A stretch of DNA of 64,000 nucleotides from Lytechinus pictus (lineage: Eukaryota), in assembly GCF_037042905.1 (NCBI RefSeq), contig NC_087250.1:10418001-10482000 (forward strand). Direction: 5' to 3'. The notes under the pieces are model-generated. The model was not told the DNA's origin, searched no databases, and saw nothing but the letters and a program-made list of their open reading frames with translations. Made by a program: the position numbers and the translations under genes. Within the stretch, counting starts at the first letter, position 1. The number at the start of each line of letters is the position of its first letter. Positions 14,907 through 56,262 of the stretch are shown piece after piece.

Positions 14907-14991
14907 ATGCAGGCGACACGAGCATCCCTGTGGGGCTCACTCCTCCTGATAATAGGAGCGACTAATTTGCAGATATCCAACGCTCAAACTG
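14907..14991 (+). CDS. Exon 1: signal peptide [28 protein letters not shown]
   Basis: Basic N-terminus, hydrophobic core, SNA|Q cleavage-like site; donor G|gtaagt, phase 1. Confidence 0.85.
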
Positions 14992-17900
14992 GTAAGTCAT
15001 AACTTCCACGTAAATTGTGAGATAGCAATACATTTTCAATGTGATAGGGAAAAGAAGTACTGCGTTTTTAAAGAAGTCTACGTAAGAGAATTAACAAAAA
15101 CATACGTAGGAGTGCACTTGATTATTCTTAAAATAAGTGCCGAAATTTAGAAATCGAAGGATAAGGAAGTAACTTATTCACAAACTTGCATGTTAAAGGG
15201 ACTTACTTTATGATGGATCAGATTTTTAGGTTTAGATGTATACACTCGGTAGTTTTCGCCCCGCGAAGTAGAACGCGTTCAAAAACATAGAAAATGTATT
15301 GTCAAATGTTCTTTATGACAAAGAACAACCAAGCAATCTTTGTCAAAAAAAACGGTGAATCAGAGCAGCAGTTTCGTCCATAGACAGGACAAACGATCGA
15401 CATATTCGCATTTTCTTTTGACAGTTCCGAAACGTAGGACGATACTTCTGCTCCGGGTTGACCAATTTTCGATAAAGACTTCTCAGTGGTTCATAATCAT
15501 TTGGCAGACATTTTCAATACAATTACTGTGTTCTTTAATACATTCTGCGTCCCGTAACACAAAGGTTAGCGATTAATCGTTCGCTTGATTTTCACGATTG
15601 ATTGTACATTGTAGTCAATGAAATCAATCGTAGATAAATGGTCTACGATCATTGCTAAGTTTTGTCTTACGGGCCCCTGGGTCGCGATGCAAAAACTCCC
15701 TAATTACAATCTGATAAGAGAAGAAACGGTAAATTGCCACCTGGGCTTCACCAACGATTTGGTCTAATTGACATTATGTCATTTAATTTTAATTAAGGAT
15801 ATGTGTCTAACCATTTTGGATACTATATACTAGTTCGTCTGTATTGTTGGATGAAGAGTTTTCATTTGACAATGTAAAACATAACTGATTAGACAAAGTT
15901 GTAATAGCGTGCTTTCGATCTGCGACGGGCCTACGGGGAGCACTCGGTATACGGGGAAGTCAACAGACCGTGGCCGTACTCGAGTTGCGTTCCCGTCCTG
16001 TTCTAAACCCTTTTCGTTTGCGCTATCGACAAGTTGCGCTAACAACAAGTTGCTAAAACATTTTTGTAATTGCTTAAAATTGTTTAAAAAGTTCAAATAG
16101 TAGAGTGACGGGCTTAAACAACGTGTTTAAAATTTTTAACAGCTTTTTATATATAGACTAAACTGATTGTAGACCAAATGTTTAGCCTATATGTAGGCCT
16201 ATCGCCTGGTCTGAGATGAAAGCCCAATGGCTTGCAGACCAATGAATAAATTGAATATACCATGCTGTTCATAACTCTCGATGGTAGGCAGTTTTTGCAC
16301 CGTGACGAAGGAACACTTTCAAGAAAACAGAAAATGTATTGTCATATATCCTTCATGAGGAAGAGGTCTGTCGAAAATGAGTGAATCAAAGCGATAGTTT
16401 AGTCCTCTGGACAAACGACATATTTGCATGTTCTCATCTGCTCCAAAACTTGGGACGTAACTGCCGTTCTGGTTCACCGATTTTCGACAAAGACCTCCCG
16501 GCTGCTCATTGTCATTTGACGGGCATTTTCAAAACACTTACTGTTCTTGAATTCGTTTGTGTCGCGGTGCCCCTACTCTATGGACAACGTAGCGATAAAC
16601 AATAAAAGTAGGGCATATATCGACCACAGATGAATGACGATTCATTCGAGGAGATTGATACTCTGTCAGTAATGCCATTCTGTCATTTCCCTTTCATGAA
16701 ATCTCTTTTTCATCAAATCAAGAAAACATTCGGCTCGTTGGAGGGGAAAATGCCTACGAAGGTCGTATTGAGGTTCTACACGACGGCGGATGGGGAACGG
16801 TTTGTGACGACTCCTTCACAGACGTTGACGCACAGGTAGCTTGCCGCTCTCTGGGACTGACCGGGGGAGTCGCGCTCACACATGCACACTTCGGTCAAGG
16901 AAGTGGGCAGATTTGGATGGATAACCTAGCGTGCGATGGAACGGAGAACGCTCTTGACGAGTGTGGCCACAATGGATGGGGATCACACAACTGTGGGCAT
17001 CACGAAGACGCCGGCGTGGCATGCGAAGCACCAGCAGGTAGGTATATTATGTAAAGAAAGATTAAGATTTATCAATGGTGATGATAATAATAATAATAAT
17101 AATAATGATAATAATAATATTAACGATAATAATGATAATAATGATAATGATAATGGGGATAATAATAATAATAATAACAATAATAATAATGACTATTATT
17201 ATTATCATATTAATATGGTTAAAATGAATCTTTTTGTCTAGTATAGTTGTAGGGAAGGAACCCTTGAGAAAACAGTTCCCCAAAACGTTCTTTTCGTGCT
17301 CAAGGACCTTAACTGTTTTTTATAAAGCACTAAAACGCTTCCAAATAGCGGAAAAGCATATAACCCTTTTTTTCTAATAATGATATTTATTGTAATAATT
17401 ATAACAAAAATAACGATAATGATAATCACAATAATAATACCAGTGACGTCATATTTACTCATACAGGGTAGCCACTTCAGTTCCGGTAAATTCTTGTCCC
17501 AGTGGGCCTTGCTTACACTCTAAAAAAAACAGAGAGTCAAAATTTACCTAATATTGGGTAGAAAGGGAACATCCATGTTTGCTTGGTAATTTTCCCCTCA
17601 ATATTAGACAAAATTGCATGTTTGAAGGGTAAATTTCAACGCAACATTGCGTAAAATGTACAAAAATATTTGGCATTTTTTTACCTAACAAACACGCATG
17701 TTCCCATTTTACCCAATATTGGGTAAACCTTTTTTTTACAGTGTAACATGATAATAGGGAGTGTTCCCACAGCGAGTACGAACGATTGAGTACAGAGAAA
17801 ATGTATTGTCAATGCCATTCATGACAAAACAATTGAGAAAGAAAGAGAGAGACAGATAGATGGAGGGAGGGAGAGGGGAGAGAGAAGTGGGCATATTTTC

Positions 17901-20900
17901 GTATTTTATTATTAGGCCTATTCCTGTGACCCTCGAACTTGGAACCAATAATAAACCACCAGGTATTTTGAAATGTTTTAAGTACGTTTGGAATTGGATA
18001 AGCAGACTCGGGGGGGGGGGGGATCATAGGCATGCAACTTTAACACAAATTCAACACGGTTGAGTTCCGTCCGATGATTTTAAGTTCACCGATATCATTA
18101 TACAAGATACAAGATATTTATTTTGTCTTCGCAAACATTATTACAAAGAAATTTGTTTTCCACTGGTGTAATATACATTAGACATGCATGAACAACATCA
18201 AACAAAGAAACAAATAAGTTACACAGGTATGACGCAAATACAACAAAACATTTGCAAAAGTTTGAGTCATCCAGAATACTTATCATAATTATTAGCATTC
18301 AAATATTGTTATGCTTATTACTGACATTATTATTATTATCATTATCATTGTTGCCATCATCATCACTACTATTGCTTTTATTATATGGCAAATGTAGATA
18401 AACTCCTTGCCAAAGGACGCTAGTGCGTGTAGAATTCATGATTTATGTGGATAATAGGGAGTTTCGCAATATCAATAGGGACATGTTCTAGAACACAGTT
18501 GCCCGTATTCTGAAGTCGGGTTTAAGTTAAACTCAGGTTTAAAGTTGTGGTTTAAGTATGGGAAGCCAATAGTATCAAATTTGTTATTAAGTTGTATGTT
18601 TCTTATGTTTACTGTGCTCTTTCCTGATTCATCGATGGTGAAGCCAATAATCTTTTTATACTTCCTAAACAATTATGAATGATTTGAGAGCCAAATGAGC
18701 TGAAGTATGATATCTCTACTGTTAGTGATTTATGTAACAACTGGCTGTCCATACTATAACCACAACTTTAAACCTGAGTTTAAGTTAAACCCAACTTCAG
18801 AATACGGGCCAGTAAATCTATTGAAAATGAAAGTCAAATCACAATGGAGAGCTGAGAGGCCTTTGTCGAAAGTTGGTGGACCAGGACACCGATTCGTCCT
18901 AAGATAGGTTTGGGACGTACCGGACGAAATAATGTCGTTTGTCCAAAGTCCAGGATGACACCGCTGTTTAATTCATTCACAGATTTTCGACAAAGACTGC
19001 TTTGTCATGAGTGGCCGTTGACAACTTTCTCTTCTTTCCAGAAAGCGTCTGTGTAGTGGTTGCAAAACTCCCCAATGACACAAATTAAAACTAAAACTCT
19101 GTGTGTCTTAGGTATCCATTTGGAATTAGCAATTTTTGTATGTTGTCTTTCAATCAATCGGCACTTTTCGCATTTACTACGAGGAAACTCTCTACAACAC
19201 ACCAATTCTTTTGAAAATGCAAGTCATATCACAATGGAGAGCTGAAATGCTTTTGTCGCAAGCTGCTGGACCGGGACAGCATCGGAATCTCTTGACTATG
19301 GACAACGACATATTTGCAATTGTTCGTCCGGTGCAAATTTTCGGATGATCTGCTGTCCAAGTCCACCAACTTTCGACAAAAGCCTTTCAGCTCTCCATTG
19401 TGATTTTAAATGCATTTTAATTGTATTTTCAAAGGAATCGATGTGTTGTAGAGGGTTTCCCCGTAGTAAATGCGAAAACTACCTATTCACTTACGAGAGA
19501 CAATCTTCTTGTTTCATTCCAGCCGAACCTGACATTCGGCTTGTTGGAGGCACCAATGCTCTTGAAGGGCGCGTAGAGATCAAACACAACGGAGTATGGG
19601 GAACGGTCTGTGATGACTCCTTTTATGACAGTGACGCCGAAGTGGTCTGCCGTTCGTTGGGACTAAGTGGCGGGACGGTCCGATGCTGTGCAGCGTTCGG
19701 TCAAGGGAGCGGGCAGATTTGGCTGGATGATGTAACATGCAGCGGATACTCTGAAGACTCGCTTGGCGATTGCTATCACAGGGGATGGGGAAGCCACAAC
19801 TGCGCGCACAGCGAAGATGTGGGAGTCGTATGCGAATCAGGTATTTTCAGGTTTAATGACAGATCTTTGCAAATCGAATGGCGGTTCGCGGCGGTTTCCA
19901 ACCACCAAAGGCAAATCAGAACTTACGCATAATTGACGACGCTAATCTCGAGAGATATTTGTCACCATATCCGAAAGTGTGACCAGTGTTTCAACCACGA
20001 CCCTATGTATCAATATGTAACTTTTCCCATGTAGCTTGGAGTACTACAAGCGCACGCCACAACGCCCAGTTAGATGCTGAAGCCACGTACATGCAATGAC
20101 GTCATTGCGGCGCCATCTTTAGAGGTTCCAGGCATGATTACCTGCATCCGTTGATGATCTGATGAGAGGGAGTTTTCGAACCGTGACGCAGAACGCTTTC
20201 AAGAGCCTAGAAAATGTACTGTCAAGTGCCCACGTAACAAAGAACAGCCAAAAAGTCTTTGTCGAAAATTGGTGAATCAAAACAGCAATTTCGTTCTGTT
20301 GTTTTAATTGATTGAGTTTTGGGGGCGTTTTGTCCTGGACTGGCCAAACGACATATTTTCGATTTTTTCGACAGCTCCGAAACTTAGGTCGAAACTGCTT
20401 TCCGGTTCACCTATTTTCGACAATGGCCACCCAGCTACTAGTTGTCATATGGCGGCATTTTCAAAAGGCCTACATTTTCTATGTTTTTAAAAGCGTTTTG
20501 CGTCGCGGTGCGAAATCAAAATCTCAATGACAATGTCAGTGTCATCGGAATGAGAGCGCTAGCTATTATAATGAAATTATGACGTCATATGCGTAAGGTC
20601 TATTCTAGTATGCCGATTTTGGCAGGACTAACAAAAAGAGCATTGGTTTGTGACAATGGAAAATGACGTTAATGACACGCTTGATTAAAGAGGGGGAGAA
20701 CATGATCAACCAAGAGTGTGTACTCTCTCGTGGTAGAGATAACTAGTAGTAATGAAGAGAATGAATTAGCCTATAATCTTATTTTCCCAGAGAAACTAAA
20801 TTGCTTTGAGATAAAAAAAACAGGCCTCCTTATTTTGCTACTTGGTAATTGTGATATGAATGTATTCAGTATTGAATTAGTGTGCTATCATTCAAGTGGG

Positions 20901-23900
20901 GCTATCTTTGAAGACTACACTGCTCAGAAAGTTGCATTATGGGAAAGAACCTAGACAGATATGAGCTATTGTGTGCAATTTAACAGGGAAAAATTAATTC
21001 GCTTGCTCGTAAATTTTCAAGGGATACTCCAAGCTGAATATATTCATATCTAAATAAATAGGGTAAAATTCACAGAGGAAAATGCTTAACACTTCAACAA
21101 AATCGGATAACAAATAACGGAGTCATTTTAAAGTTTGCATTAATCCGGTGAAACAGTTCTAGGTATGCCTTCATGAATATTAGGTGGGCTGATGATGTCA
21201 CATTTGCACTTTCCCTTTTCTTATGTTATTGCATAAAATCATAATTGTTTCATTTTTTCATAAATGCGTATATGTTGTGTCTCCATTATGATGAAATAAG
21301 TTGCAGCAATAAATAACTAATGCACTTAATCAGTTATCAATCCAATCGTTTTAATTCTTGGTAGAACAATTTTGAATAAACATAATTTCATATAATAAAA
21401 TACAGGCCTAGAACTGTTTCACCGGAATAATGCAAATATTTAAAATTCAATAACTTTATTTGTTATCCGATTTTGATCAAATTTTCAGCATTTTGCTGTG
21501 AATTTTATCATATTTATATATATAAATGATTGATTTGATTTAATTATTTCCACGTAATAATCTTTTTTTTCTCAGCATCCGATTATTCATCCTACGATTA
21601 TTCATCCTACGATTACTCATCGTACGATTATTCATCCTACGATTATTCGTCCGATTACTCATCATACGATTATACTTCCGATTACTCATCCTACGATTAT
21701 TCGTCTGATTACTCATCCTACGATTATTCTTCTGATTATTCATCCTTCGATTATTCATCCTACGATTACTCATCCTACGATTATTCATCCTACGATTATT
21801 CATCCTACGATTATTCATCCTACGATTACTCATCCTACGATTATTCATCGTACGATTATTCATCCTACGATTACTCATCCTACGATTATTCATCCTACGA
21901 TTATTCATCCTACGATTATTCATCGTACGGTAAGAATGTCACAGCATTTTCAGAGCCTTATGAACCACCCCTAAATTTTTTTCAAGCCCCCCCCCCTGGA
22001 AATTACGTTGTTATGCTATTATGCATATCACTAGGCCTCTTTTACCAAATAAACAAAGATTCACGTTTCACTAACCTTTTTGGGAGGGGTTTGTGCCTTC
22101 ATTTGGTCTTTTTTTTTTGGGGGGGGGGAATCACCCAGTTTTGCGAGTAAGACTTTTTTTTTCAAAATATTGTTCATGAAAATCACCTTCACTTTTGGAG
22201 TGAAATTTTTTTATTTTTTTAAATTTGTTTATCGAATCCAAGCCACGGCGTGTTTTCTTTCCTTCAGCAATAAATTAACCCACATTGTGCCGAAGTGAAT
22301 GGGAATATGGTAGGAATTTGTTCCTTGAAACGCGGCGCGCGTAACAGCTGCTCTACTGTATAGCGCTTAGAGACTTCTGAAAAAGTAAGTGCACTGGCGG
22401 ATCCGGGGGGGGGGGCACAGCCGGCCTGTGCCCCTCTTTAACAGTGGAGACCTATATTTCGTGGAGGAAATGTCCTTAATTTTTGGTTGGAAACCTTTTT
22501 TTTTTTGCTTGTCAAATTTTTCCTCGGGATAATGCCCCCTCCCCCTTTGGAAAATCTTGGATCCGCCCCTGAGTAAGTATTAAGCGCTCTAGAAGCAAGT
22601 ATAGTTGTTATTATTAGTAGTATATAATAACGGGGAAATACAGAAGAAAATCCTAAAAAACTACAAAATGTAAAAATATATAATGAATGGGTGATAAAAC
22701 TTAAGAGAAACTATGATAATGAAGTTAAACCTAATATTAATAAAATTATAATAGTGGGAGAGAGAAGGTTGAGTTCCGACAGAGCGTTGCTTTTTATTAG
22801 ATCTCCTTCACTTTAATTTCGTGATGCACTGTAGGCCTATATATCTACTATTTGATATTTACATGTAGAATTCACGATTTATGCATAATAGGGTGTTTTC
22901 GCAATTTCAAAGGGGACATATTCTAGAACACAGTAAATCTATTGAAAGTGAAAGTCAAATCACAAAGGAGAGCTGAGAGGCCTTTGTCGAAAGTTGCTGG
23001 ACCTGGACAACATCGGAATTTCTTGACTCTAGACAACGACATATTTGCAGTTGTTCGTCCGGTGCAAATATTCGGATTATCTGCTGTCCAAGTCCACCAA
23101 CTTTCGACAAAAGCCCCGATCAGCTCGCTAATGTGATTTTAATTGCATTTTCAAAGGAATCGATGCGTTGTAGAGGGTTTTCCCGTAGTAAATGCGAAAA
23201 ATACTTTTTCACTTATACGACAAACAATCTTCTCGTTTCATTTCAGCCGAACCTGACATTCGGCTTGTTGGAGGCACCAATGCTCTTGAAGGGCGCGTAG
23301 AGATCAAACACAACGGAGTATGGGGAACGGTCTGTGATGACTCCTTTTATAACAGTGACGCCGAAGTGGTCTGCCGTTCGTTGGGACTAAGTGGCGGGAC
23401 GGTCCGATGCTGTGCAGCGTTCGGTCAAGGGAGCGGGCAGATTTGGCTGGATGATGTGACATGCAGCGGATACTCTGGAGACTCGCTTGGCGGTTGCTAT
23501 CACAGGGGATGGGGAAGCCACAACTGCGCGCACTATGAAGATGTGGGAGTCGTATGCGAACCAGGTAGGCCCCCTATTTACATCAAATTTTCAGGTTTAA
23601 TTACAGATCTTTGAGAATCGAATGGCGGTTCGCGGCGGTTTTCAACCACCATGAGCAAATCAGAACTCACGCATAATTGACGACGTTATCCTCGAGAGAT
23701 TGGAGAGAGTGTGTATGTGTGTGCGTGTGTTATGTTAGGGTGTGTGGGTGAGCGTGTAGTTGCGTGCGTGTGTGTGTGTCGGTGAGGGTAAGGGTTTGTA
23801 GGATTGATTTTGGACAGATATGTATCACTCAAATTATTTAGGTCTGGGACCGACCTAACCGTCACCATATCCCGATAGCGTGACCAGTGTTTCAACCACG

Positions 23901-26900
23901 ACCCTCTGTATCAATATGTAACTTTTCATATATAGCTTGGAATACATGCAGGCGCACGCCAGAACGCCCAGTTAAATGCTGAAGCATCTTAGAGCACCGT
24001 GACGCAAAACGCTTTCAAGAACCTAGAAAATGCTGTCAACTGCCCTCGTTACAAAGAGCAACCAAGAAGTCTTTGTCGAAAATTGGTGAAACAAAACAGC
24101 GGTTTCGTCCTGTTGTTATTGATTGGGTTTGGGGGGCGTTTCGTTCTTTACTCTAGCTGGCTAAACGGCATATTTTCAACGTCTTCGACAGCTCCGAAAC
24201 TTAGGATGAAACTGCTTTTCCGGTAGCCTATTTTCGACAATGACCTCCCAGCAATTAATTGTCATATGACGGCATTTTCAATAGGCCTAGATTTTCTATG
24301 TTCTTGAAAGCGTTATGCAACGCAGTGTGAAATGACAATGGCAATGTCATTGCCATCAGAAGGAGGGCGCTATGAAATGATGACGTCATATTCATCAGGT
24401 CTATTCTAGTACATGTATGATGATTTTGGGAGGACAAACACGGGGTATTAAAAAAGAGCATTGGTTTGTGACAATGGAACAATGACGTTAATAACACGCT
24501 AAAGAGGAAGCCAACATGACCAATAACGTATGTAGTCTCTCGTTATTATAAATAGATATATCAGACTACTAGTAGTAATAAAGATAATTAATTAGCCTAT
24601 AATTTATTTTTCTAGACAAACTAGATTGTTTTGAGATGAAAAACAGGCCTACTTATTTTGCCACTTGGTAATTGTGATATGAATGTATTTAGTACTGAAT
24701 TAGTGTGCTATCATTCGAGTGGGGCTATCTTTGAAGACTACACTGCTCCGAAAGGCGCATTATGGGAAAGAACCTACCCAGATATGAGCTCTTGTGTGCT
24801 ATTTAAAGTGATTGGTTAACATTGGCTTGAATTTCAAAAATTCTGAGCTAGAAGGTCACACTTGTCACCTGTGTCTGTGATATGTTACAAAAATGAAGCC
24901 CAGAAAAAATTGCGTTCGAAAATAATTATTTAGTGCTTCAAAAATTGAAATATAAAGTGACCGAAAACACCACCTTAATATCATCCCATACACTTATGTG
25001 TACTAGGCGTCTATAAGACGCCTATTTACAAAATCGGGGTTTGCCTTGTAGTTTTAGCTTTTCATTCTCAATAATGGTTGTTTTCAGGGTTTATTAGTTC
25101 TAATACATGCACTTGTACACATGTTTCATCTTGGTTTGAGAATTTTTTTAATCGGCTGCTCACAAAGTTAAACAATACCTTTAACAAGGAAAAATTAATT
25201 CGCTTGCTCGTGAATTTTAAAGGGATACTCCAAGCTGAATATATTCATATCTAAATAGGGTAAAATTCACAAAGCAAAATGCTTAAAATTTCATCAAAAT
25301 CAGATAACAAATAACGAAGTTATTGAATTTTAAATTTTGCATTATTCCGGTAAAACAGATCTAGGCATGCCTTCATGAATATTCATTAGGTGGGCTGATG
25401 ATGTCACATTCACACTTTCCCTTTTCTTATGTTATTGCATAAAATCATGATTGTTTCATAATTTTCATAAATGTGTATTTGTTTTGTCTCCATCATGATG
25501 AAATAAGTTGCAGCAATAAATAACTAATGCACTTAATCAGTTATCAATCCATTCGTTTGAATTCTTGGTAGAAATATTTTGAACATAGTTTCATATAATA
25601 AAAAAAGGCCTAGAACTGTTTCACCGGAATAATGCAAATATTTTAAATTCAATAACTTTATTTGTTATCCGATTTTGATCAAATTTCAGCATTTTGCTCT
25701 GTGAATTTTATCATATTCATTGAGATATAAATATTTGATTTGATTGAATTATTTCCACATTTCCATACCAAAAGTATATACAAGTGTAATAATCTTTTTT
25801 TCTCAGCATGTGATTATTCATCGTATGATTATTCATCGTACGATTACTCATCGTACGATTACTCATCCGATTACTCATCCTACGATTATTCATCCTACGA
25901 TTACTCATCCTACGATTATTCGTCCGATTACTCATCCTACGATTACTCATCCTATGATTACTCATCCTACGATTATTCGTCCTACGATTACTCATCCTAC
26001 GATTACTCATCCTATGATTATTCATCGTACGATTATTCATCCTCCGATTACTCATCCTACGATTACTCATCCTACGATTACTCATCCTACGATTATTCAT
26101 CATATGGTAAGAATGTCACAACATTTTCAGGGCCTAATGAAATAAATCCACATTTATCTTTAAAATGTGCGCTGGATCATAACAACTAACCTCATGTAAT
26201 TTATTCTGTCAGTTTTGACCTATGGGGGTTAAATAGGCAAGAAATTGAGGTCTTAAGCAAGTATTATCTTCTAATGGGAATGCATTCAAAGGTCCTTCTT
26301 GTGTATAATTTTATGCTGATTCCAAATATATTAGTCTTAATGACCCTATTTAACCGCTTGTGGTCATTTTGGTCATTTATGTCCCTCAAAATGACCAATA
26401 ATACAAGTTCAATTTATCTAAAAGTACTTTGAATGTTACCAACCAGAATCGCTACGAGGGTATGTTGTGACAACTAACACTGGTGTATTAATCCTTTGAA
26501 TTGAACATCTCAAAAGTATTTTGACCTCATGTCACTTATTCAATCAGTTTTGACCTATGAGGGTCATCTTGGGTACTTTAGACATAACTGACCATTCGCG
26601 CAATTTTGCATAATAAACTGCAAATCGACAAGAATTTGAGGTCTTCAGCGTGTATCTTCTAAATGGGAATGCATTTAAAGGTCCTTCTTGTGTAGAATTT
26701 TATGCTGATTCCAAATATATCAGTCTTAATGACCCTATATAACCGCTTATGGTCATTTTGGTCATTTATGTCCCTCAAAATGACCAATAATACAAGTTCA
26801 ATTTATCCAAAAATACTTCAAATGATACCAGAATCGTTAGAAGGGGGGCGTGCTTTGACACCAAGCATTTGTTTATTAATTCTTTAATTTAATTTCATTA

Positions 26901-29900
26901 CATTTACTTTATTTCTTTGTATAACATGTTGTAAATTTTCTTGTATTGCATTGTATCACTTTAAGCACAAATTCTTAGATACCACTTTGATTTTTATCTC
27001 ATCTAAAATATATTATTGATTACATGTATTTATATTTTTAATGTCAGGACCATGATGAAAAACAGTTTTTTAACTGATCCTGAATAACTACATTTGAATA
27101 AATGAATAAATAAATTGAACATCACAAGAGTATTTTGACCGCATGTAACTTACTCCATCAGTTTTGACCTCTGAGGGCCATTTTGGGCACTGTAGAAATA
27201 ACTGACCATTCGCGCAGTTTTGCATGTCTTCATGAACGAACAAACTGATGATCTCTTATCGCCATTTGTTTTTTTCGTATTTTATTATATGAAATTATGT
27301 TCATTCAAATTTTGCACTCCAAGAATCAATAAAACGGATTAGCAATTGATTTAATGCATTGTACATGTATATTCACCATGTTCACTGCTGCAACTGATTG
27401 TATTGCAAGGGAGACAATGGAGACACATGTATGAAAATATGAAATAATTATGATTTCAATTTGTAATAACATGAGAAAAGGAAAATTTGGGACATCAAAT
27501 CATCAACCCACCTGATGAATATTCAAAAGGTTGTGCACACAACTGTTTTCACAAAATATTGTTCAACTTTGAAATTGAATAACTTCATTATTTGGTATCC
27601 GAATTTTATGACATTTTCAGGAGTTTGCTTAGTGAATTTGCTTTATGTATTTAGATGATAATTATTTTCATCCCGGAGTACCCTTTTTAAGTTCAGTATA
27701 ATTAATTTATTCATTTTATATCTAAAACAATGAGTATATAAAGCACACATCAAAATAATATTCTAATGTGATTTATAGAATATTATAAATATGAAAAAAA
27801 ATAAGATAATACAAGTAACATAAATCTGAGTACGATTAGGCTTATATATTAACATAATAAATGAAAACTAAGGCCTTAAACTTAAACGAATATTTGCCTT
27901 TTATAAATAAATTTCGGTTTATACAATATTGTCTCTGTATCATCGGGTTAAAGGGACTTTGATCATACACTGCAAAAACTCCGGTGTTGATTTCCTACCA
28001 GCCCGGAATCTATGTATGCCCACGCCAGAGAAGTATTTAAACAACACCAGTTGGGAATCAAACCGAGGCTGCTTTTAACACTAATTGGTATTGTATTAAC
28101 ACCTATCTGATGTTAGACCAAAACTCAACTGGTGTTATTGTTTAACATTTCTCTGGTGTGGATATAGATTCAAGACTGGTGGTTAATCAACACATGAGTT
28201 TTTGCAGTGTAATAACTGCACCTGACACTTTTCTAGATGAAGTACATTGTAAATCCAGGGATTTACACAAAGGTTAGCGTGCTAGACTTACCACTTGGTA
28301 ATGGACCAACCTGGGATGGCCGAGGGCACGACATTTGCTCCGGCGACAAGTAATCCGGGCTTTATTTCCTCCAAGATATAGGGTTAGGGTTATGGTTGCA
28401 ATAGGGTTTTATGTTGTTAGCTTATAGATTTAGAATACGGTATAGCGTTAAATCCAGCCGAGGATTGAGTTAGTAATTTCGGTAGTGTGTGGACTTTACA
28501 GTCAGACGGCAGGTCCCAAGAAAGTGGCTTCTTTCATCCAAGTGATATTTATGACTTGAGATGTTTTGCATATTTAATGAGCTTGATGCGGACCAAAACA
28601 CCTCTTTTCATTCGGTCATTGCTGCTCTAATTGGGCATCGAATTTCATGAATTTGGTATCATTGTAAAGAAGAAGAATCATTCTTTTAGGTCATGTGTTT
28701 GAATTTATTCAAAGATTTTGTAATATTGGTTGAAATTTTTATCTAAAATATGCTACAAAATGATTATTTTCACCTGACAAAAGCTGATATTTTCACACTT
28801 TATTTTAGTTTGAGCCCAAATGATTTTAGATCATGACAAAGCTGAATATTTATGCTTTAAAATGGAATAGATTTCAAAATAAGAATTGGTTTAATCGGGT
28901 CAAGATCACACTTTTCATTGGCCAAGTACATAAAGCATAAAGCAGCTTTAAAACAAGAATACTGCACTCTGATTGGTCAAAGAGACCACACACTGGCAAA
29001 TTCCAACGGCTCCAGTGCCCGGGTTCATGGGAAGGTCACACTTCCCATGTGGTAATCTCCTCAAATACCCCGCGCCTGTTGTTCTGTGAATCTTATCCAG
29101 CCAATCAGAACTCTGGATTTCATGCAAGTAAAACAATTCAGAAATCTCGTCTTGTACCTTGGTGGGAAAAGTGTGATCTTGACCCGATTAAATGGTGCTG
29201 CAAATCAAGAGTGGCATTGTGAGAAAGTACAGAAGTTCAGCTTTATGGTGATATAGATATCATTGAGGCTCAAAATAAAAAGTTTTGCACAATTTGCAAA
29301 AGAAAACAGAGAAAGATAATTCAGTTTGAGGCACATTTTCAGGTCAGAAATTTACTTATTTAACAAAATATGGTATACAAAATAAATGACCAATATGAAA
29401 GAGTAACATTTACTCTATCTGATGGTGCAATAATATTTCATTTAACTTGAGATTAAAACAGGTAAATTCTTAGAGAAAGAAAATCTCACGAATCACGAGA
29501 TTTTGCAAGAAGAAGGATTCAGCCACGTGATGATTTGGATGAATCTGGCCTTTTTGCTCATTAGCATATGGACCTGCGGTCTGACTGTTTACAGCGGAGC
29601 AAAATTTTCATGGAACCAACCGGTGAAGGGGACAATTTGTGCTGATCGCGAATTCCCATTTCTGTTTGGTCTCTCTCTCTCTCTCTCTTAGGTTGTCGAT
29701 CCGATCAGTTCCAATGCTACGACGGTCAATGTATACCAGGTTCTTGGATATGTGATAATGACAACGACTGTAGATATGGCGAGGACGAATACAATTGTGG
29801 TGGTAAGACCTCAAAAAAAGTTCCAAGTTTCTGTTTCATTTGTGTCATGAAAAAAAATGGAACAAACCTAAATATCGATCTGTTATCAAGTTTCTACAGC

Positions 29901-32900: not shown

Positions 32901-35900
32901 TTTAAGTGAATATTTATCCTCAGTCGAAGTATACCATCCATTAGCACTATGTGGATTAACCTTCAGATAACCTTACTATGTATTGAAATCATCGTTGGCT
33001 GGAGGACAGGAAGATAAAACCCCTTATTATGACCGTTCGGATCCCCCAAACAATAAATTAAATATCGTTTGGTTTGTATTCATCATAGTCTAAGGATTAC
33101 AGCAGAAAAGATGTGGTGACATTGCACAGCCTTGCGGAAGACCTCTCCTTTTATCTTCCACATGAAACTTGAATTTAATATGGTCAAGATATGAAATATC
33201 TTAGGTCACAGATGGTTTTAAACGTAAGAGCAGAACGCATGCAAGAACACAGTAAATGTATTGACACTGCAAGGTCGCGAGGTCTTTGTCAAGAATTGTC
33301 GAACCGGAAAAGCAGTTTCGTCCTGAGTTTTGGAGGTGACAAAAATTTGTCCAGATTCCTGAACATAACAGCTGTTTTCACGGTATCATGACATCATGAC
33401 ATCCAGCGACATTTGCTCTGGTCTTAATATCTCAGAGAGCATAGGGTTAGATTTAGGATTGTAATTATAGTTTTTTGTTCAGAATAATACAAAGCTAGGG
33501 ACTAGGTTTATTCAGGTTTGAGGGTTAGGTGTCATGTTTGGCTTAACGTGCATATTTTCCATCGGAGCGATTGTCGCCGGAGCAAATGTCATGGAACCAT
33601 TTTGATTCACCTAGTTTTCGACAAAGACTTCAAGGTTTTTGTTTTGTGATGAAGGAAATTTGACAATGTATTTTCTTTGTTCGTGAATCCGTCATGCGTT
33701 GTGGAGCGAAAAGTACCTAATTAAAATCCCCTTTCTGACTTGTAAAAGTCTCTGTCTGCCCGGTTGCAAATCTTTAGTGAGGTGTTGGCGAGCTAGGAAT
33801 ATCACCGTCTGGCATGAGGCTAAATGGGAAGTAGGCGAAATGGATGTATACCAATCGACAATTTACTTTTCTCTTTTCTCTCTCTTTCTCTTAGCTTGTG
33901 GATCCGATCAGTTCCAATGCTACAACGGTAATTGTATTCCAGGCTCCTGGCAATGTGATTATATCAACGATTGCTCATATAACGAGGACGAACAAAATTG
34001 TGGTGGTACGATCTCTTATGATTACTCTATATAAATATAAAGAAATACATAAATAAATAAATAAATATATATATATGTATTATATATATATATATGTATA
34101 TACATGTACATATACATACATATATATACATATATATATATAGGTATATAGTATAGTAATAGGGTGGAGCGAGTTGCTTAGATTTTAGTTGTACAGACTG
34201 TTTCCCCCTGAGGGTTCATCAGCAACAATATATAGGTATATATACCTATATATAGGTATATATATATTCATACATACATATACATATGTATATGTAATAT
34301 ATATATATATATGTCGTTTGATTTCAGCAGGTTAGCCCCATCATTAATTGAGATACTATTGTACACGGGGGCCCTGCATAACATAAAAACACATAGAAAC
34401 ACAAATATATAGAAATTTAGAGATGATACTGGAATATAGTTTAGTTTCGAATACAATATAATTTAAGTGATAAGGATTTATGTCATTTTTTTCTTCTTTT
34501 TTTTGTAGAATACACGACATATTCATGGCCACCCTGGGAACCGGAGCCTACCGAGTCTTATGGTAAGTATAAATAAACGAACGTTGAGGGCAGCAAGACT
34601 GCAAATTTTTGACGCCATCTACGTTCGTTGGTAAGATGAAGACTATTACACGTAAAGTTGGAGACTCACCATGCCGATAAATTAGTTTTAATAAATAACA
34701 AAACAGATTTACTGTATAGAGGAAAATAAAGGTGATGGTTTTATGAACCCATTACGGAATGGAGAGATGAATTTTTATTATGCTTGACGTCATGTGCGAC
34801 AACCTCTCCTATATTACATGGGATGCACATTTCATGAATTCCACTTTTTTGTTTTCATGAAACATGAATACAAAAAAAATTGTTGAAGCTGTAGAAGGTA
34901 GTTTGGAATGATGACTTGTGTCGGGTGATTTATCTAGGCCTTTACAAATGAAATGAGCTTCATATTTTTTAAAGTGTATTTATTTATTAGAAATGTTCAT
35001 TTTATGGAATTAATACTATACACGAAATAAGGAGGAGCTGATCGTCGCTTTTTAAATTAATTGTTGTATTATTCTTTAGGTGATTTTCATACAAAAAATA
35101 TTATAAAATCTCATGCATTCCCGTTTTTAAGTTAATAGCTCAATTATTGTTCGCTACTGCTCCTGCACCTACACTGAACCCACATATACAATAATATTGT
35201 GTACAATTATTACGAGGCCGCCGCCATTATCAAGTTTAGTCGCTCACGATGGCGGTCTCCAGCATTCATTTCAATTACCATTTTGTTAAATGAATAATAC
35301 AGTTCGTTGGTATTTATTTTCATTGCTTATATTACTCTTTAGTGTACTGTTGATTTGTTCTGTAAAACCTTTCTATGTGTTATGTTCCGGGGTTAAGATG
35401 TACACCCATCCTGCTGTTATTATTATTTATTATTATTATTATTATTATCATTATCGTTATTGTTATTCATGTACAGAAGTACATATAATATTTTCCTTCC
35501 TCGATGGAGTTATCCAACGAATAGCATTTTGCCCGAAGCGCACAGCGCTGAGGGAAAATATTCTCCCGAGAAGAATATACAACTTCGGAGCAGTGTCGCC
35601 AGGTTCATGCTGAAGAAAATGCCCAAATCCCCAGATTTCCAAATAAATTCAGATAAAAGTCGGGACTGTTACTGCCCCAAAAATAGTTTATGGACTGTGT
35701 GTTCTCCTACACTGAACATGATAACAAATGGCCTTTTCACACGTGAATCTTGAATCATCATTGTAATGATGATCCGCCATTCGTCTTTATAATCATCGGA
35801 CCTTTCACACGCTCACTCGAACACTGATTTGAATTCGAATTCCCGAGCGAAGGCGGTATGTGTCCTTGGTGACATGTCAATCAAAGCACTGCATCGCAAA

Positions 35901-38900
35901 TACAATGCACTTCCTTTTATTTCCGTGATACAATGCTTAAAAGTTCACGTAATTAAGCTCCGCCCTATGATGTTTTGGAGGTCAAGCTTTTCACACGTAC
36001 AATTCGTATCGTAATTTGCGTTAATCTTAACTGGAATTAACCTCCGGAGTAGAATTTGAATTCGTGATTGTGATTAGCGTTCGTGATTCTAATAATGTTC
36101 TAATATGGTTTCACACGTGCTAAAAATACGTCATTGGCTTTATTTTCCACTGCATGGAATCATCAATTTTTTTTACCGTGTGAAAGGGTGGAATATAAGT
36201 GTTGCCAATCTCAAATGACAAAAAAATCAAAGACTGCAAATTCCGGATTCAGGTTCGCGAAATATGTTTTTGAGCTGTCGGTGGAAACACTGATTCTCTC
36301 TTTTTGGTTTAACTTTTAAAGGTTGCATGCCCGACGAATTCAGATGTTCCAATGGTTCTTGTATACCTCATTATTGGATTTGTGATCATTTCACCGATTG
36401 TCCCAACGACGAAGATGAGGAGGATTGCGGTGAGTTTGAGTTGGTTTACTACTATCTTTATTTTTTGTTAATTTAGAGAAAAACAATAGTGTTAATCTTG
36501 GTATAGGGTACTCAGCCGAGCAAGGAGTTTCACTCACCTGCGTATGCTCGAGGCAGCATAATATATTCAGCTAACTGACCCTATTCTCTGCCGCCAGATG
36601 TTCGAAAGAACCTTTGCGTTATTTTAGTTACTTTGCTTCAATTTACGGCTGTATTAAAATCCTATGTCTACCTTGACAGCTAATCACAGCTCGTCTATTA
36701 ATTTGTTTTCTCCTCCATTGATATTAGTCATAATACATTTTTGAAATATATTTAATGTGTATAAATAGTGACGATGGTTACTTTTTGAGGAACGTGTCAC
36801 ACATGAATTTGGTGTAATACCATATAATATACAGCAAACAGCGTTGTAAAAAGTTTAAATAGCTTTTTTTGCGTGAATGCTTTATCATTCTTTTTTATGA
36901 AAGATTGAAATATATACCATTTACACATATACGTATCCATGTCTTGCAAAAATAGACCCTCTTTCCCAATTTTGGCAACCTACTTACCCTTTCCATTAGG
37001 ATGTATGTTTAATGCCCTGGAAAGCGAGGGGGTAATGCGTACACTGCAAAAACTCCGGTGTTGATTTATTACCAGCCCGGAATCTATATATGTCCACACC
37101 AGAGGAGTGTTAAACAACACCAGTTTCGTTTTGGTCTAAGACCAGATAGGTGTTTATACAACACTAATTAGTATTGAAACAGCATCGGTTTGATTCCAAA
37201 CTGGTGTTGTTTCAATACTTCTCCGGTGTGGACACATATAGATTTCGGGCTGGTGTTAAATCAACACCGGAGTTTTTGCAGTGTATATTATTTACCATAC
37301 TAGGCAGCACTCCTCCCCCACCCCCGCTCCGGAAATCAGGATGGTACTCTTAAATATAGAAATTTAATTAAAATAACCTTCATTTTTCGAGCGGATGCTT
37401 TTTTGTTGTCAATTTCTTTCCCAAGCCAGCACACCCTCTTCAAAAAATGTTCCCGGCATTACCCTGTGGCAGTGCCCCCCACCTTTTTCCAAGACATGCC
37501 GCTATTTCCCAAACGACATTTATTTATTTATTTATTTATTCATTTATCTATTTATTTATTTATTCATTTATCTACTCATTTATTTATTCATTTATTCATT
37601 TAATTATTTATTCATTCGTGTTTTCTTTATAAAAAGCAGGGTAGTCCCTTCTTTACAAGGGAGCCCTGCTATCATTAAAATTCGAACATCATACAATCAT
37701 AATTATAACAAAACAATTAAAATACACAATACAAAAATAATATATATACATAAAACAATGGGAGGAATAAGGCCCATACATATGACAAACGTAGTGTAGG
37801 TAAGGTTATGTCGTCCAAAATACATGTTTTATGTCAATTTCTTTCTTTCCATCATAAAAGACAGAAAATAGTAGGGGGACATTTGATATGGTGCCCCCTA
37901 CTATTTTGGGTAGGGGGGACACGTCCCCCTGTCCCCCCCTGGAATTTCCGCCCATGCTGGTAACAAATTGAATAGTTTGCTGCTGGAAAGGACTGTTTTT
38001 TATACTCGGTTCTTGGTTTTGCGAGATACATGTTGGTAGAGTAGGCGGCTGTAGGCCTACACCTTTTTAAGATCTGGGACCGGCAACACAAAGGTTATTG
38101 ATTAATCTCTAAATGAAATAGCCTATCAAGATCATCGTTGCATGCGCGTTTTGCTTAGTAGACCGACCAGGAACCAATCAGAATGTTTCTTTCAAATTAG
38201 CGATTAATCGTTCATCTGTAAGCCACGGGGCTCTGAATTTTTCAATAAAGAAATATTCAAATAAATTCAATTAAACATTAATTTTCTTCCGATTGACATG
38301 TCATCCATTTTTCATGCAGAATATACAAATCAATAATACATCATTAATATAGTACAAAAAACAATGAATATAAAATACAGTAGGCCTATGCAAATTATGT
38401 ACATGGAAATAGGCGTAAAAACCCCGAAAGCAAGTGCTTGTGTCGGGATTCGCCTGTAAAAGTATAATTATGTCTAAACAACAATTTTGAAAAAATAAAA
38501 ATTCCAATGGTTCGCGGCATGGGTTAATAAGGGCCAACTTAATGTAAAAGACGTAAATAAACTAGACAACTTTGAGGTTACGTGTAACTGTCTTTAATAA
38601 CCATGGCCAAGAGACCAAGACTAGGTGGCGCGCTTACACTTTGCGCTTGCAACATCGAATCATCATTATAATGCTAGCGTCGATTTTTGTTTTTGTCCAT
38701 AGATTACCCCACACCAAACCCTGCAGGCTATTTCGAATGCCCAGAAGGCACTATCATACCTAGCAGCGACCAATGCAACGGATACGTGGACTGCTCAGAT
38801 CACTCTGACGAAGCGTTTTGTGGACCGAGTAAGATTTTTATTTTATACAGGAGTTTCTGCATTTTATTCATAAATCAATAACAAGTGAAAAAAAACCTTT

Positions 38901-41900
38901 ATACAATAACAATGACATAAATGAGTACATTTTTTGTGTGACAATCGAAAATATAAATAATGTATAAGACTGAAAACTACATGAATGAAGCATGTAAAAT
39001 AATAAGTTGGGTAAACATGCAGGGGCCAGCTATAATAAGCAGTTACACTGCTTGAAACAATAGCAGACGTAAGGACGGTACATATCCTTAATAGGTTAGA
39101 GATATATATTTCGATAAAATGATGTCACGAAGTAAAAAGTATGAAAGTTTAGATTTTCTTGTGGGGAGAGATAAGATAAGATTTACAATAGGGCATTTTC
39201 GCAATCACTACATAGACGCTTTCTATAACGCAGAGAATATGTTGTCAAAAGCCCTGGCCCGTATTCTGAAGTCGGGTTTAACTTAAACTCAGGTTTAAAG
39301 TTGTGGTTTAAGTATGGGAAGCCAAAAGTATCAAATTTTTTATTAAGTTGTATGTTTCTTATGTTTACTGAGCTCTTTCCTGATTCATCGATGGTGAAGA
39401 CAATCATCTATTTATACTTCCTACACAATTATGAATGATTTGAGAGCCGAATGAGCTGAAGTATGATATCTCTACTGTTAGTGATTATGTAACAATTGGC
39501 TGTCCATACTTAAACCACAACTTTAAACCTGAGTTTAAGTTAAACCCGACTTCAGAATACGGGCCCCTGTGTCGCCCAAGACTCTGACTGAACAAACGAC
39601 ATGATTATGTGCGGTATTTTGTCCGGTCCGAATATGAAGACGATGTGCTGTCCCGGTCCAACAACTTTCGACAAAGACCTCTGATCTGTCTATTGTGATT
39701 TGACGGGCATTTTCAATAGATTCTGAACGATACAGAAAGATTCTAAGAAAGGGGATGTTAAACCCCGGGGGGCCACTTACATTGACGAGTGAATACCATG
39801 CGCGACCAAAAAAACACGTAAAAAGGATGTCTTTTTCAAGATAGGGCACGTTACGTACGTAACTTGATAAGGGTGTCAAAACACAAAAATAATGAAAAAA
39901 GGGTATCTATTCCGCTATGAAAGGTACGTGTTTAGGGTCAAATTTTCGGGGATGATAAAACAAAATTAAAATGCTTCATAAAGGATGCCCTTTTTGCCCC
40001 AACACTACATGTGTAGGGTCCGATTTGCGAGAGGTGTGGAAGGTGGAGCCGTAGGCCTACTAAACCAAATGGTGTGTAAAGGTAAAACAATAAAATATCG
40101 CTGTACTTGTTTAGGGGTTAATTTCAGAGAATACTTGCCAAGAGTATCGTTTTGTTTCCAATACTTGATAGGGTAGGGTTTCAGACGCCAATACTTGTTA
40201 AGGGGTGCATTTTCAGAATATGAAAAATACGTGTTTAGGGTGCTTTTCGAGACCCCATGGTCGTGCATGGTATCCACTCGTCAATGGAAGTGGCCCGGGA
40301 TGTTAAAATAGGCTATTTAGTGCATTCAGTCATTACGTAACATTCAAGAAGGGAATATGTCTCTTACCATGCTAGGATTTGGTTTGGTTTTATTTACCGC
40401 ATAAAAATCACAATAAAATACATTTCACAAGATATTAGATTAAATATAAATATATAAACATGCACATAAAAATATACGGATGGATCACTCTATTCAGAGC
40501 CATTGATATAATGGCTGTGTTCTTCCTAGAGGTCCAGTCAAGGTAATCAAAGTAACGAAGTTAATCCTAGTGATATAATTGGTTGTGCAGCCCACTATTA
40601 TTATCATTATTATTAATAATATCATTATCATTATTATTTTTATATGTTATAATTCTAATATTGTTGTTATCATTATTATCATCATCATCATAATTATTAG
40701 TATTATATCATGCGTTATTATACCGTTTTAAAGCAAGTGAAAACATTTTGAAATCTTTTGGAAATAATATTGAAAACATTTTCAGCATACTGGGTCCCTT
40801 TATCGACTTTATGATGGTGTACATGATTCAGTCTTTAAAAAGTGGATTATTTTTATTGAAAATATCTGAACAATGGTTTTATTTTACATGCTGATGGGGG
40901 TAATTTAAATTTACATTTTCTCAGCTTGCCAATGGTATGAAGAATTCGAATGCGCGGATGGCATGTGCATTTCGAGCGACCAGTTCTGCGATGGCGTCAA
41001 CGACTGCCCATTATATGGCGAGGACGAGTGGTATTGCGGTAAGCATTGAAGTCCCTCTAAAGTGGGTTATTTCCGATTCGTCTAGTTCCAATTCGTCCAA
41101 TTGCCAACTTGTCTACTATGATTTGGTCTACCATCAGTTCGTCCACTATCCACATGGTCTAATTGCCAATTCGTCGACTCATCGTTTCGTCTAATAATCA
41201 GTTGGTCCAATAGTCATTTAGTCCATATACCACTTGGTCTAATTGGACTAAGTGTTCATTGTGGAAGATGAATTAAAATAAAATTGATATTATACCAACT
41301 AGTTATGAGACGAAATGGTCATAGTCGAAATGGTGATTAGACGAAGTGATGATTGGACCAAATGGTTATTGGATCAAACTGTTGTTAGACGAAATGTTGA
41401 TGGACGGAATGGCACTATACTAAATGAAAGAAGACCATGTGGTGGGTGGACGAGTTGGCAATTTACCCTCTAAAGTTTTGTGACGTCGTTGGATTAAAGT
41501 CCATTACGACGTTTTCAAAACCCTTTGCGACGTTACTTAAAACCCATTATAACGTTATTAAAAGCCAATTAGAAAGAAAAATTCGATGTAAACATACTTG
41601 ATGAGGAGAGTTGTCTGAAACACAGAACTTTGCTTCTTATTGACATATCTTTATGAATTGCATTAGAGAAACAGAAAATTGTCGAAAAAAAAAACAACAG
41701 GAGTTAAAGAATCTATTTTAGTCATGTAAAAGTCTTTTTGAACAAGGTCTGTTGTGAATCAGAAACAGGGAAATAAAAATTATGCACATAATAATCTCAA
41801 TGTATTTCAATCAGTAGGCCTATATTCGGCGTGCATCGAATCGAAGTAAGTGCAGTTTGAACAATGAATGCTGACGAAAACAAGGCTTCAAATAATTAAT

Positions 41901-55596: not shown

Positions 55597-56262
55597 CCGG
55601 CCAGGTGCCGCTGATCATTCTTGACCGGCGCCGACCTAGATTTGGTTGGCAATAGGCCCTTCTTCATTATTCTACCGGCGCCTATTTATTGGAACCAGGG
55701 GAAGCTGATTATTCTTGACCGGCGCCGATTTAAATTTAGGTGGCGCTGGTTATTCTTGATCGGCGCCGGTTAAGAAAAAGGCAGCGCCGATTTGTCTTGA
55801 CCGACGCCGATTTAGAACAAGTAGTGCTGATTATTTTTACCGACGTCACGTAAGATTCAGGCAGCGGCAATTCATAATCGACTGGTGCCGATTTAGAACC
55901 AGGAGGCGCAGATTTTTAATCAGGTGGCGCTGAATATTCTTGACCGGCCCCGATTTAGATATAGGTGGCGCTGATTATCCTTGATCGGCGCCGGTTAAGA
56001 ACTCAGGCAGCGCCGATTTATCTTTACTGGCGCCGATTATTCTTGTCCGGTGCCGATTTAGATTTAGGGGGCGCTGATTATCCTTGATCAGCGCCGGTTA
56101 AGACTCTGGCAGTGCCGATTTTTCTTGACTGGCGCCGATTTATAACCAAATGGCGCTGATTATTCTTGTCCGGCGCCGATTTAGATTAAGGTGGCGCTGA
56201 TTATTCTTGATTGGCGCCAGTTATATGCAGGCAGCGCACTGCTGAATATTTTTAACCGGCGA
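55597..56262. repeat. Minisatellite of alternating ~21-bp GGCGCC/GGCGCT subunits
   Basis: ggcgccgatttaga / ggcgctgattattcttgacc motifs recur. Confidence 0.85.

Follow-up and report, generated by a model that had tools for sequence, protein, structure and literature searches.

The window analyzed here is a 64,000-nucleotide (nt) stretch of the Lytechinus pictus genome (NCBI RefSeq assembly GCF_037042905.1, contig NC_087250.1, positions 10,418,001 to 10,482,000 of the forward strand, numbered here from 1), and its plus strand carries a gene of 14 exons (14907-44719) in which two exons consist of minisatellites encoding tandem copies of the pentapeptide DYSSY, referred to below as array 1 and array 2. 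Exons were placed with related Lytechinus proteins as guides (tblastn of the models P0001 and P0002, described below) together with splice sites. Each of the 13 introns has GT-AG borders, exons 2-12 all have lengths divisible by 3 and are in phase 1, and the spliced frame stays open for 912 amino acids (aa) with no internal stop, giving a predicted product with 114 Tyr and 61 Cys. Stop-to-stop frames on the plus strand contain three SRCR exons (Pfam E 1e-28 to 1e-30) and five LDLa exons (E 3e-12 to 8e-07) (Table 1). Read from the genomic sequence, these exons spell out a predicted secreted-type mosaic of a signal peptide, SRCR, SRCR-(DYSSY)24, SRCR-(DYSSY)20, five LDLa, a Tyr/Trp-rich stretch, a somatomedin-B (SMB)-like module, and an Arg-rich tail, the features pointing to the secretory pathway being the hydrophobic N-terminus (recognized by eye) and domains that are all of extracellular types (SRCR, LDLa).

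Array 1 fills an exon of 354 nt and array 2 an exon of 300 nt, both multiples of 3, and both are flanked by a T-rich/polypyrimidine tract with CAG on the 5' side and a GTAAGA donor on the 3' side. Tandem Repeats Finder (TRF) reports a period of 15 nt for each, over 21580-21929 in array 1 (24.1 copies, 84% matches, score 497) and over 25812-26101 in array 2 (19.7 copies, 87% matches, score 412), which places both among coding minisatellites, i.e., head-to-tail units of 10-100 nt within a coding exon. With the first two bases skipped, array 1 reads S(DYSSY...) and array 2 C(DYSSY...). The 24 units of array 1 (19 DYSSY, 3 DYSS, 1 DYTS, and 1 DYSSF) contain 43 Tyr and the 20 units of array 2 (17 DYSSY, 2 DYSS, and 1 DYSSS) contain 37; 38 of the 44 units are 15 nt long and the other 6 are 12 nt. 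A preliminary description of this stretch had read the arrays as coding exons after each duplicated SRCR, with borders at 21576/21929 and 25807/26106, 44 DYSSY-type units (24 and 20), about 80 Tyr, and length variants of whole codons (15 versus 12 nt). The borders, each with a splice site, and the unit counts proved exact, as did the figure of 80 Tyr and the whole-codon variants, and exons 4 and 6, which look constitutive, do follow SRCR exons 3 and 5, with canonical splice sites and RefSeq models in support. Ser makes up about 41% of the arrays, Tyr 37%, and Asp 20%, basic residues being absent, and AlphaFold2 modeling of array 1 alone gave a mean predicted local distance difference test (pLDDT) score of 45.3 and no secondary structure, consistent with arrays predicted to be disordered, without a fixed structure.

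Table 1. Exons of the gene and the two copies of its duplicated SRCR/DYSSY segment.
Feature	Position	Strand	Evidence
Exon 1: start codon and hydrophobic signal-peptide-like N-terminus	14907..14991	+	tblastn P0001/P0002; phase-1 GT donor; N-terminal 30 aa identical to L. pictus P0006; signal peptide by eye
Exon 2: SRCR domain 1, 315 nt, phase 1-1	16723..17037	+	Pfam SRCR E 1.1e-30; AG/GT
First copy of duplicated SRCR-exon + DYSSY-exon segment	19156..21964		direct-repeat families D1, D3-D5, D7, D9, D11, D13-D19
Exon 3: SRCR domain 2, 318 nt, phase 1-1	19523..19840	+	Pfam SRCR E 1.2e-29; AG/GT
Exon 4: DYSSY array 1, phase 1-1	21576..21929	+	TRF, splice sites; junction residues identical in L. pictus P0006
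Second copy of duplicated SRCR-exon + DYSSY-exon segment	22887..26141		direct-repeat families
Exon 5: SRCR domain 3, 318 nt, phase 1-1, 97% copy of exon 3 (repeat family D3)	23247..23564	+	Pfam SRCR E 2.9e-28
Exon 6: DYSSY array 2, phase 1-1	25807..26106	+	TRF, splice sites; junction DYSSY/G/CRSDQF in L. pictus P0002
Exon 7: LDLa domain 1	29692..29802	+	Pfam Ldl_recept_a E 2.7e-12; splice sites
Exon 8: LDLa domain 2	33895..34005	+	Pfam E 6.7e-12; splice sites
Exon 9: LDLa domain 3	36322..36429	+	Pfam E 2.6e-11; splice sites
Exon 10: LDLa domain 4	38703..38828	+	Pfam E 1.6e-08; splice sites
Exon 11: LDLa domain 5	40925..41038	+	Pfam E 8.2e-07; splice sites
Exon 12: Tyr/Trp/Ser/Asp-rich stretch (YYDSWS x3), then 10-Cys SMB-like module	42320..42568	+	TRF 42326-42378 period 18; Pfam Somatomedin_B E 0.43
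Exon 13: conserved GLYYIE motif	43722..43774	+	tblastn, alignment of relatives
Exon 14: Arg-rich tail (RRRR, RRARR) and TAA stop	44543..44719	+	tblastn, alignment of relatives

Each array has three open frames out of six, and the coding frame is for that reason decided not by openness, but by splice phase, codon-position bias, and the RefSeq models. Single-base variants of the consensus unit, GAT TAT TCA TCC TAC, are of 10 kinds with 43 occurrences. In the DYSSY frame, 7 of these kinds, accounting for 40 occurrences, leave the amino acid unchanged, and the other 3 kinds, with 3 occurrences, change it. Possible single changes to the consensus number 9 synonymous and 36 not, so that 7/9 versus 3/36 were seen (Fisher p 8.2e-5), whereas in the other two forward frames, with 1/9 and 3/7 synonymous/non-synonymous kinds, there was no bias (p 0.41 and 1). 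The test rests on kinds rather than occurrences, since the units are copied and occurrences are not independent. Judged from these codons, the arrays are under selection for the peptide D-Y-S-S-Y, which agrees with the preliminary description on both of its arguments, namely that substitutions are mostly synonymous (40 of the 43 departures from the consensus) and that it is the peptide that is selected (the bias exists in the DYSSY frame alone among the forward frames). That the arrays form a real coding spacer under peptide selection is therefore a reading in which we place high confidence. A minus-strand gene over the arrays was considered and rejected: although an open minus frame exists (RRMNN...), it has no support, and no frame other than DYSSY agrees with the codon-position bias.

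Two further details of the array sequences concern single codons. The first full codon of array 2 (25809-25811) is TGT (Cys), where array 1 has TCC (Ser) and Lytechinus variegatus Tyr or Asn, and this Cys at the boundary between SRCR and array is possibly unpaired. All 44 Asp codons of the arrays (21581-21928 and 25812-26105) are GAT and none is GAC, despite free variation at other synonymous sites, which could reflect chance, repeat homogenisation, or a constraint at the DNA or RNA level.

A protein search with array 1 returned three matches at E <= 0.001 among 8000 scored candidates, namely a 'DMBT1-like' protein of L. variegatus (P0001, 1187 aa), L. pictus LOC129263387 (P0002, 505 aa), and an unrelated bacterial surface protein (P0003); a cluster look-up added the L. 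variegatus isoforms P0004 and P0005 and the L. pictus models P0006 and P0007. Over aligned columns the predicted product is 98.8% identical to P0006, 99.4% to P0007, 97.7% to P0002, and 91.6% to P0001. The models of both Lytechinus species represent the same gene or an orthologue, with domain order, DYSSY unit, and exon junctions in common: the acceptor at 21576 recurs in P0006, the donor at 26106 is joined to the first LDLa exon (DYSSY/G/CRSDQF) in P0002, and L. variegatus has the equivalent of the junction between the donor at 21929 and the SRCR that follows. Of the L. pictus models, P0006 breaks off within or beyond array 1 in unrelated residues, P0007 covers no more than the 3' end, and P0002, in which SRCR1 is joined to a single array, has two LDLa exons in the wrong reading frame (tblastn shows a frame switch at 29670-29826). 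The L. pictus RefSeq locus thus appears to be split over three partial models where the window gives one uninterrupted 912-aa gene, a practical gain in that the split annotation is resolved into a single gene.

The SRCR and DYSSY exons were duplicated in tandem with a spacing of 3.7-4.2 kb, the SRCR exons being 97% alike and the introns 82-97%, and L. variegatus has three such SRCR-DYSSY modules versus two here. Array 1 has 24 units in the window versus 36 in P0006, the same exon in the same species, and the two share the order of their marker units (DYSS/DYSSY alternation, DYTS, and one Phe unit, DYSSF here and DFSSY in P0006). The L. variegatus models have 35/22/12, 34/24/6, and 34/24/at least 9 units per array, and array length across all models ranges from 6 to 36 units with every difference in frame, the reservation being that assembly collapse or error could affect the unit number of any single array. 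Between P0001 and P0005 there are 9 substitutions, five 5-aa indels within the arrays, and one 2-aa indel elsewhere, and the sole difference between the isoforms P0004 and P0005 is one 29-aa in-frame piece of array 3. By sequence comparison, both arrays are coding minisatellites whose growth and shrinkage proceed in complete units of 15 or 12 nt, and the variation in copy number that the preliminary description had expected is supported (24 versus 36 units in L. pictus, 6 to 35 in the L. variegatus models, always in frame). Exon 12 contains a further in-frame repeat (42326-42378; 18-nt unit, 2.9 copies, 97% matches) encoding YYDSWS, with three copies here versus two in the L. pictus models P0002 and P0007, again a whole-codon length difference. 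LDLa exons 1 and 2 with their flanks (29674-29797 versus 33877-34000) form an 82% direct repeat, 4203 nt apart (family D10), and the LDLa part has therefore also grown by tandem exon duplication.

To place the arrays among known proteins we draw on a phmmer scan of 1,835,955,588 representatives, which gave 381 matches at E <= 0.001, 46 at 1e-10, and 4 at 1e-30. Among the best 150 of the 381, none of the 147 other than P0001-P0003 exceeds 5.5% Cys, and hence none is SRCR-rich; within 25 inspected of the same 150, DYSSY words occur only in P0003 (6) and P0029 (7). Like the arrays, P0003 (a bacterial DUF11 surface protein) and P0029 (a He_PIG-domain protein) have short YDYSSY-type runs, but these stand in another domain context, are built of mixed units (YDYPSY, YDNTSY), and are not accompanied by SRCR, so that the likeness, judged from sequence, is compositional convergence and not homology. 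Look-alikes of array 1 in the ESM Atlas score at most 0.87 and belong to bacterial low-complexity clusters, and the exon-12 peptide, used as a query, matched nothing but the two Lytechinus proteins among 14 candidates. As far as sequence tells, (DYSSY)n beside SRCR is confined to Lytechinus among the representatives scanned, with the best 150 of the 381 matches listed; the search with (DYSSY)n that the preliminary description had suggested thus brings up SRCR-linked matches in Lytechinus only, the rest being compositional look-alikes.

A more distant counterpart emerged from a search with the C-terminal 395 aa of P0005, which retrieved Strongylocentrotus purpuratus LOC105442945 (P0156; E 1.7e-83, 44% identity, 99% coverage) as well as Diadema MAM/SRCR/LDLa proteins that have only the C-terminal module in common. 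As in the L. pictus gene, LOC105442945 (at least isoforms X5, X20, X22, and X38) encodes a signal peptide, SRCR, a long Tyr/Ser/acid array, five LDLa, the same Cys-rich module, and an Arg-rich tail; unlike it, there is one SRCR and one array, of 309 aa with 71 Tyr in P0156, whose 14-aa units (EYWSDYSSFSDYPS in 10 copies, EYWSEYSSFSDYPS in 6, and close variants) include Trp, Phe, and Pro. In this array Asp or Glu stands at position -1 of 62 of the 71 Tyr, and of 0 of 22 Phe and 0 of 21 Trp. An acid on either side adjoins 63 of the 71 Tyr, compared with 78 of 80 in the window (Asp at -1 in 44 and at +1 in 34). At its extra aromatic position the unit has Tyr in Lytechinus, whereas Strongylocentrotus has Phe or Trp there. 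As Asp or Glu precedes Tyr and never Phe or Trp, it is Tyr specifically that follows an acid, while the other aromatic position is free (Tyr, Phe, or Trp), and the turnover between 14-aa and 5-aa units with acid-Tyr kept therefore leaves [D/E]-Y-x-S as the conserved element. A 12-aa Tyr-rich micro-segment and a 37-aa LDLa cassette distinguish the S. purpuratus isoforms from one another, from which it follows that modules in this family are used as cassettes.

The C-terminal module (42430-42568, 43722-43774, and 44543-44719) is kept from Diadema to Lytechinus as a 10-Cys segment with an SMB-like core, an invariant GLYYI, and the Arg-rich tail, whose RRRR and RRARR clusters look like furin-type sites in sequence. 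The Cys-rich part scores 11.4 bits (E 0.43) against Pfam Somatomedin_B, versus a cut-off of 23.1, and Pfam gives no such match in P0156, P0181, or P0007. A profile of four orthologous C-termini searched against the PDB has SMB-domain proteins as its best matches, all of them marginal (EndoU E 0.011, ENPP2 0.078, ENPP1 0.29, and vitronectin 1.8).

Transcript evidence is weak. Of the sequencing runs listed, 20 contained shares of 0.05-0.15 of 956 sampled words, none reached half, and none is on record as RNA. Run X1 is of a kind not recorded; one of its contigs, of 470 nt, aligns to 16722-17034 (exon 2) alone, with 0 differences, and the depth of 1.76 in the bin 16600-17043 is this single contig alone (313 x 2.5 / 444). 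A 261-nt contig of the same run lies on 19522-19782 (exon 3) and begins at 19522, another of 122 nt departs from the genome at 23561 (the edge of exon 5), and an 87-nt contig is identical to 25811-25897 within array 2. From these exon-bounded contigs we infer that X1 behaves like complementary DNA, and we interpret the 1-nt and 3-nt offsets of its contigs from exon edges as the same letters (G, CAG) on either side of the splice. Intronic interspersed repeats (18376-18819, 21040-21497, 24592-25479, and 28144-29900) are covered extremely deeply in each of the four runs, those of RNA among them (reaching ~170,000 in summed contig depth and ~430x in raw reads), with loose ends at repeat borders, e.g., at 18501, 21497, and 25184, and are presumably abundant transcribed transposable elements.

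In its layout the gene recalls human DMBT1 (SALSA, gp340), a secreted protein in which tandem SRCR domains, each on its own exon, are likewise combined with spacer exons and the number of modules varies; passages of PMC5435793 and PMC4851238 describe SRCR domains alternating with SRCR-interspersed domains (SIDs) in a tandemly duplicated region that is polymorphic, from 8 to 13 SRCR. The L. pictus gene has the same SRCR/spacer arrangement, with three SRCR exons, two of them followed by spacer exons. Its spacers are Tyr/Ser/Asp minisatellites of 100-118 aa, whereas the SIDs of DMBT1 are short and rich in Ser, Thr, and Pro, and LDLa and SMB-like modules take the place of CUB and zona pellucida (ZP) domains. 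Pfam found no CUB or ZP domain in P0001 or in the exons of the window, where the C-terminus consists of five LDLa, the SMB-like module, and the basic tail. Membership of the DMBT1 family proper is ruled out by this lack; the gene is not an orthologue of DMBT1, and the RefSeq name 'DMBT1-like' reflects, on the sequence evidence, SRCR similarity only. Sulfotyrosine-rich acidic N-terminal regions are known from class II/III small leucine-rich repeat proteins (fibromodulin, osteoadherin, and lumican), which the arrays resemble in sequence context; those regions have ~3-12 Tyr, no tandem repeats, and no homology to the arrays, whereas each array has 37-43 Tyr, with sulfation predicted from context. 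SFE1, SFE9, and proteoliaisin are LDLa-rich proteins not known to contain SRCR. They are secreted echinoid proteins with tyrosines cross-linked by ovoperoxidase, as a passage of PMC3528131 states, and no link between them and this gene in sequence or expression was found. We found no literature on these arrays, on the Lytechinus models, or on S. purpuratus LOC105442945 in a search that covered papers apart from the supplementary tables of proteome and transcriptome studies, and nothing relevant to this gene in the sea urchin literature on tyrosylprotein sulfotransferase or on tyrosine-rich or dityrosine proteins with LDLrA; bioRxiv 10.1101/284224, in the part available, counts 69 'DMBT1' unigenes in Tripneustes and gives no description of this gene. 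We regard the arrays as a variant of DMBT1-type SRCR/spacer exon arrays and of sulfotyrosine-rich acidic domains, solid and unusual in their sequence facts, with a function that we infer.

Our tentative proposal is that these are real coding arrays under peptide selection in which tyrosine sulfation would be the chemistry that matters. The arrays would then keep the SRCR domains at a distance from one another as long, acidic, extended spacers, similarly to the SIDs of DMBT1, and the selected feature would be the [D/E]-Tyr dipeptide, which Golgi tyrosylprotein sulfotransferase prefers as its context. Once sulfated, each spacer would be a polyanion resembling heparin, and its possible partners would be basic ligands, cations, or the Arg-rich tail of the same protein. 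Table 2 of PMC7310474 characterizes sulfation sites by acids within +/-5 residues, often at -1, turn-inducing residues, few basic or hydrophobic residues, the absence of a nearby disulfide Cys or N-glycan sequon, and clustered Tyr. The arrays present this context, with the acid adjoining nearly every Tyr, turn-inducing Ser and Asp, zero basic residues, and Tyr in clusters; one Cys occurs, at the first residue of array 2, and there is no N-x-S/T sequon in P0001 or P0156. A further passage of PMC7310474 describes the sulfotyrosine domain of fibromodulin as a heparin mimic. The comparison with S. purpuratus would favour sulfation over dityrosine cross-linking, because the acid is kept before Tyr across the turnover of units and never stands before Phe or Trp. 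On these grounds sulfation of tyrosine is a plausible, if tentative, candidate for the relevant chemistry of the arrays.

Several observations weigh against this proposal. Acidic residues within +/-5 of Tyr average only 2.05-2.14, fewer than at textbook sulfation sites, and sulfation predictors are called unreliable in a passage of PMC7310474. The RefSeq models are automatic predictions, and one of them, P0002, passes straight from SRCR1 to a single array, so that exons 3-6, in whole or in part, may be included as cassettes and not constitutively. No joint at 21576, 21929, 25807, or 26106 is among the 15 of 250 joints listed, and the raw-read RNA runs X21 and X24 have zero depth on the bins 16600-17043 and 23260-23703, which are almost wholly SRCR exons 2 and 5, so that the gene was not seen in those samples. 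A bolder version of the proposal, which we consider doubtful, has the arrays carrying sulfate from end to end and so forming a heparin mimic of protein alone, with ~40-80 sulfotyrosines per molecule and a length tuned by minisatellite gain and loss, perhaps pairing with its own Arg-rich tail through Tyr/Arg contacts to give a condensate or glue outside the cell that surrounds the SRCR and LDLa binding modules. If true, this would be about an order of magnitude denser than any described sulfotyrosine domain; in L. variegatus the number of Tyr per protein reaches ~130.

Alternatively, the arrays might be acidic, Ser-rich spacers that work independently of any Tyr modification, being O-glycosylated, Ser-phosphorylated, or Ca2+/mineral-binding, with Tyr serving only for stiffness or aromatic contacts, for example with the Arg-rich tail. 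Such a role would suit the abundance of Ser (41%) and Asp (20%), the lack of basic residues, the place between SRCR exons, which matches that of the SIDs in DMBT1 (a passage of PMC5435793), and a length that varies freely between alleles and species. It has no need, however, for 37% Tyr with only 3 non-synonymous variants among 44 units, nor for [D/E]-Y kept through a complete change of unit between genera. The contexts of Ser also differ, being S-S-Y-D in Lytechinus versus S-D, S-E, and S-F-S in S. purpuratus, by our own reading of the sequences against kinase motifs. We consider this explanation somewhat unlikely.

A slightly less favoured explanation makes the arrays substrates for an extracellular peroxidase (dityrosine) or tyrosinase (3,4-dihydroxyphenylalanine, DOPA), which would cross-link the protein into a hardened matrix as in the fertilization envelope. 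LDLa domains are typical of fertilization-envelope proteins, and this protein has five of them, along with ~37% Tyr in a disordered, secreted segment. Sea urchins possess a well-described ovoperoxidase system, which cross-links tyrosines of cortical-granule proteins such as SFE1 and SFE9 (passages of PMC3528131 and PMC2114886). Cross-linking requires no adjoining acid, but one is present at 78 of the 80 Tyr of the window arrays and at 63 of the 71 Tyr of the S. purpuratus array, and the second aromatic position in S. purpuratus is occupied by Phe or Trp, which are incapable of forming dityrosine. A link in the literature between this gene and SFE1, SFE9, or proteoliaisin was also not found, and we judge cross-linking unlikely as the purpose of the arrays.

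It is also improbable that the arrays are a tolerated, essentially neutral minisatellite expansion, or cassette exons that are usually skipped, with no specific function. A unit number of 6 to 36 among models would be expected under neutrality, as would symmetric phase 1-1 exons whose skipping leaves the frame intact, cassette use in the gene family (L. pictus P0002 and many S. purpuratus isoforms), and units kept alike by unequal exchange alone. Homogenisation nevertheless fails to explain why the variants fall on third codon positions of one frame, and three species keep Tyr-acid-Ser arrays at this place. Hardly credible is the idea that the arrays are non-coding intronic minisatellites wrongly included in gene models, which could appeal to the three open frames out of six and to the missing array joints among the 15 of 250 listed, but is contradicted by canonical splice sites at both ends of both arrays in a phase that matches the flanking SRCR exons, by the codon-position bias, by the same layout in gene models of two further species, and by the exact 87-nt contig in run X1, whose other contigs end at exon edges.

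Were the arrays modified in the way that we propose, or cross-linked, they would represent a natural extreme of tyrosine sulfation or cross-linking, and a length-variable polyanionic spacer made of amino acids rather than of glycosaminoglycan. The replacement of the repeat unit between genera with [D/E]-Tyr kept offers a comparative handle on which residue matters, and L. pictus can be bred and edited in the laboratory, which makes the question testable. Even in the event that no modification occurs, the locus is a clear case of exon-level modular evolution at two scales, that of 4-kb SRCR + spacer modules and that of 15-nt spacer units.

Other features of the window lie outside the coding exons. 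About 50 nt downstream of the exon 2 donor, an intronic (ATA/GAT)n microsatellite (17084-17190) would read as poly-Asn/Asp in an open frame and is outside the gene model. Non-coding tandem repeats occur at 46001-46833 (a 418-nt unit in two copies, 88%), 2446-3252 (163/192-nt units), and 55922-56218 (41/103-nt GC-rich units). On the plus strand at 62519-63253, an open frame contains a reverse-transcriptase domain (Pfam RVT_1, E 1.8e-28) and is likely a fragment of a non-LTR (long terminal repeat) retrotransposon.

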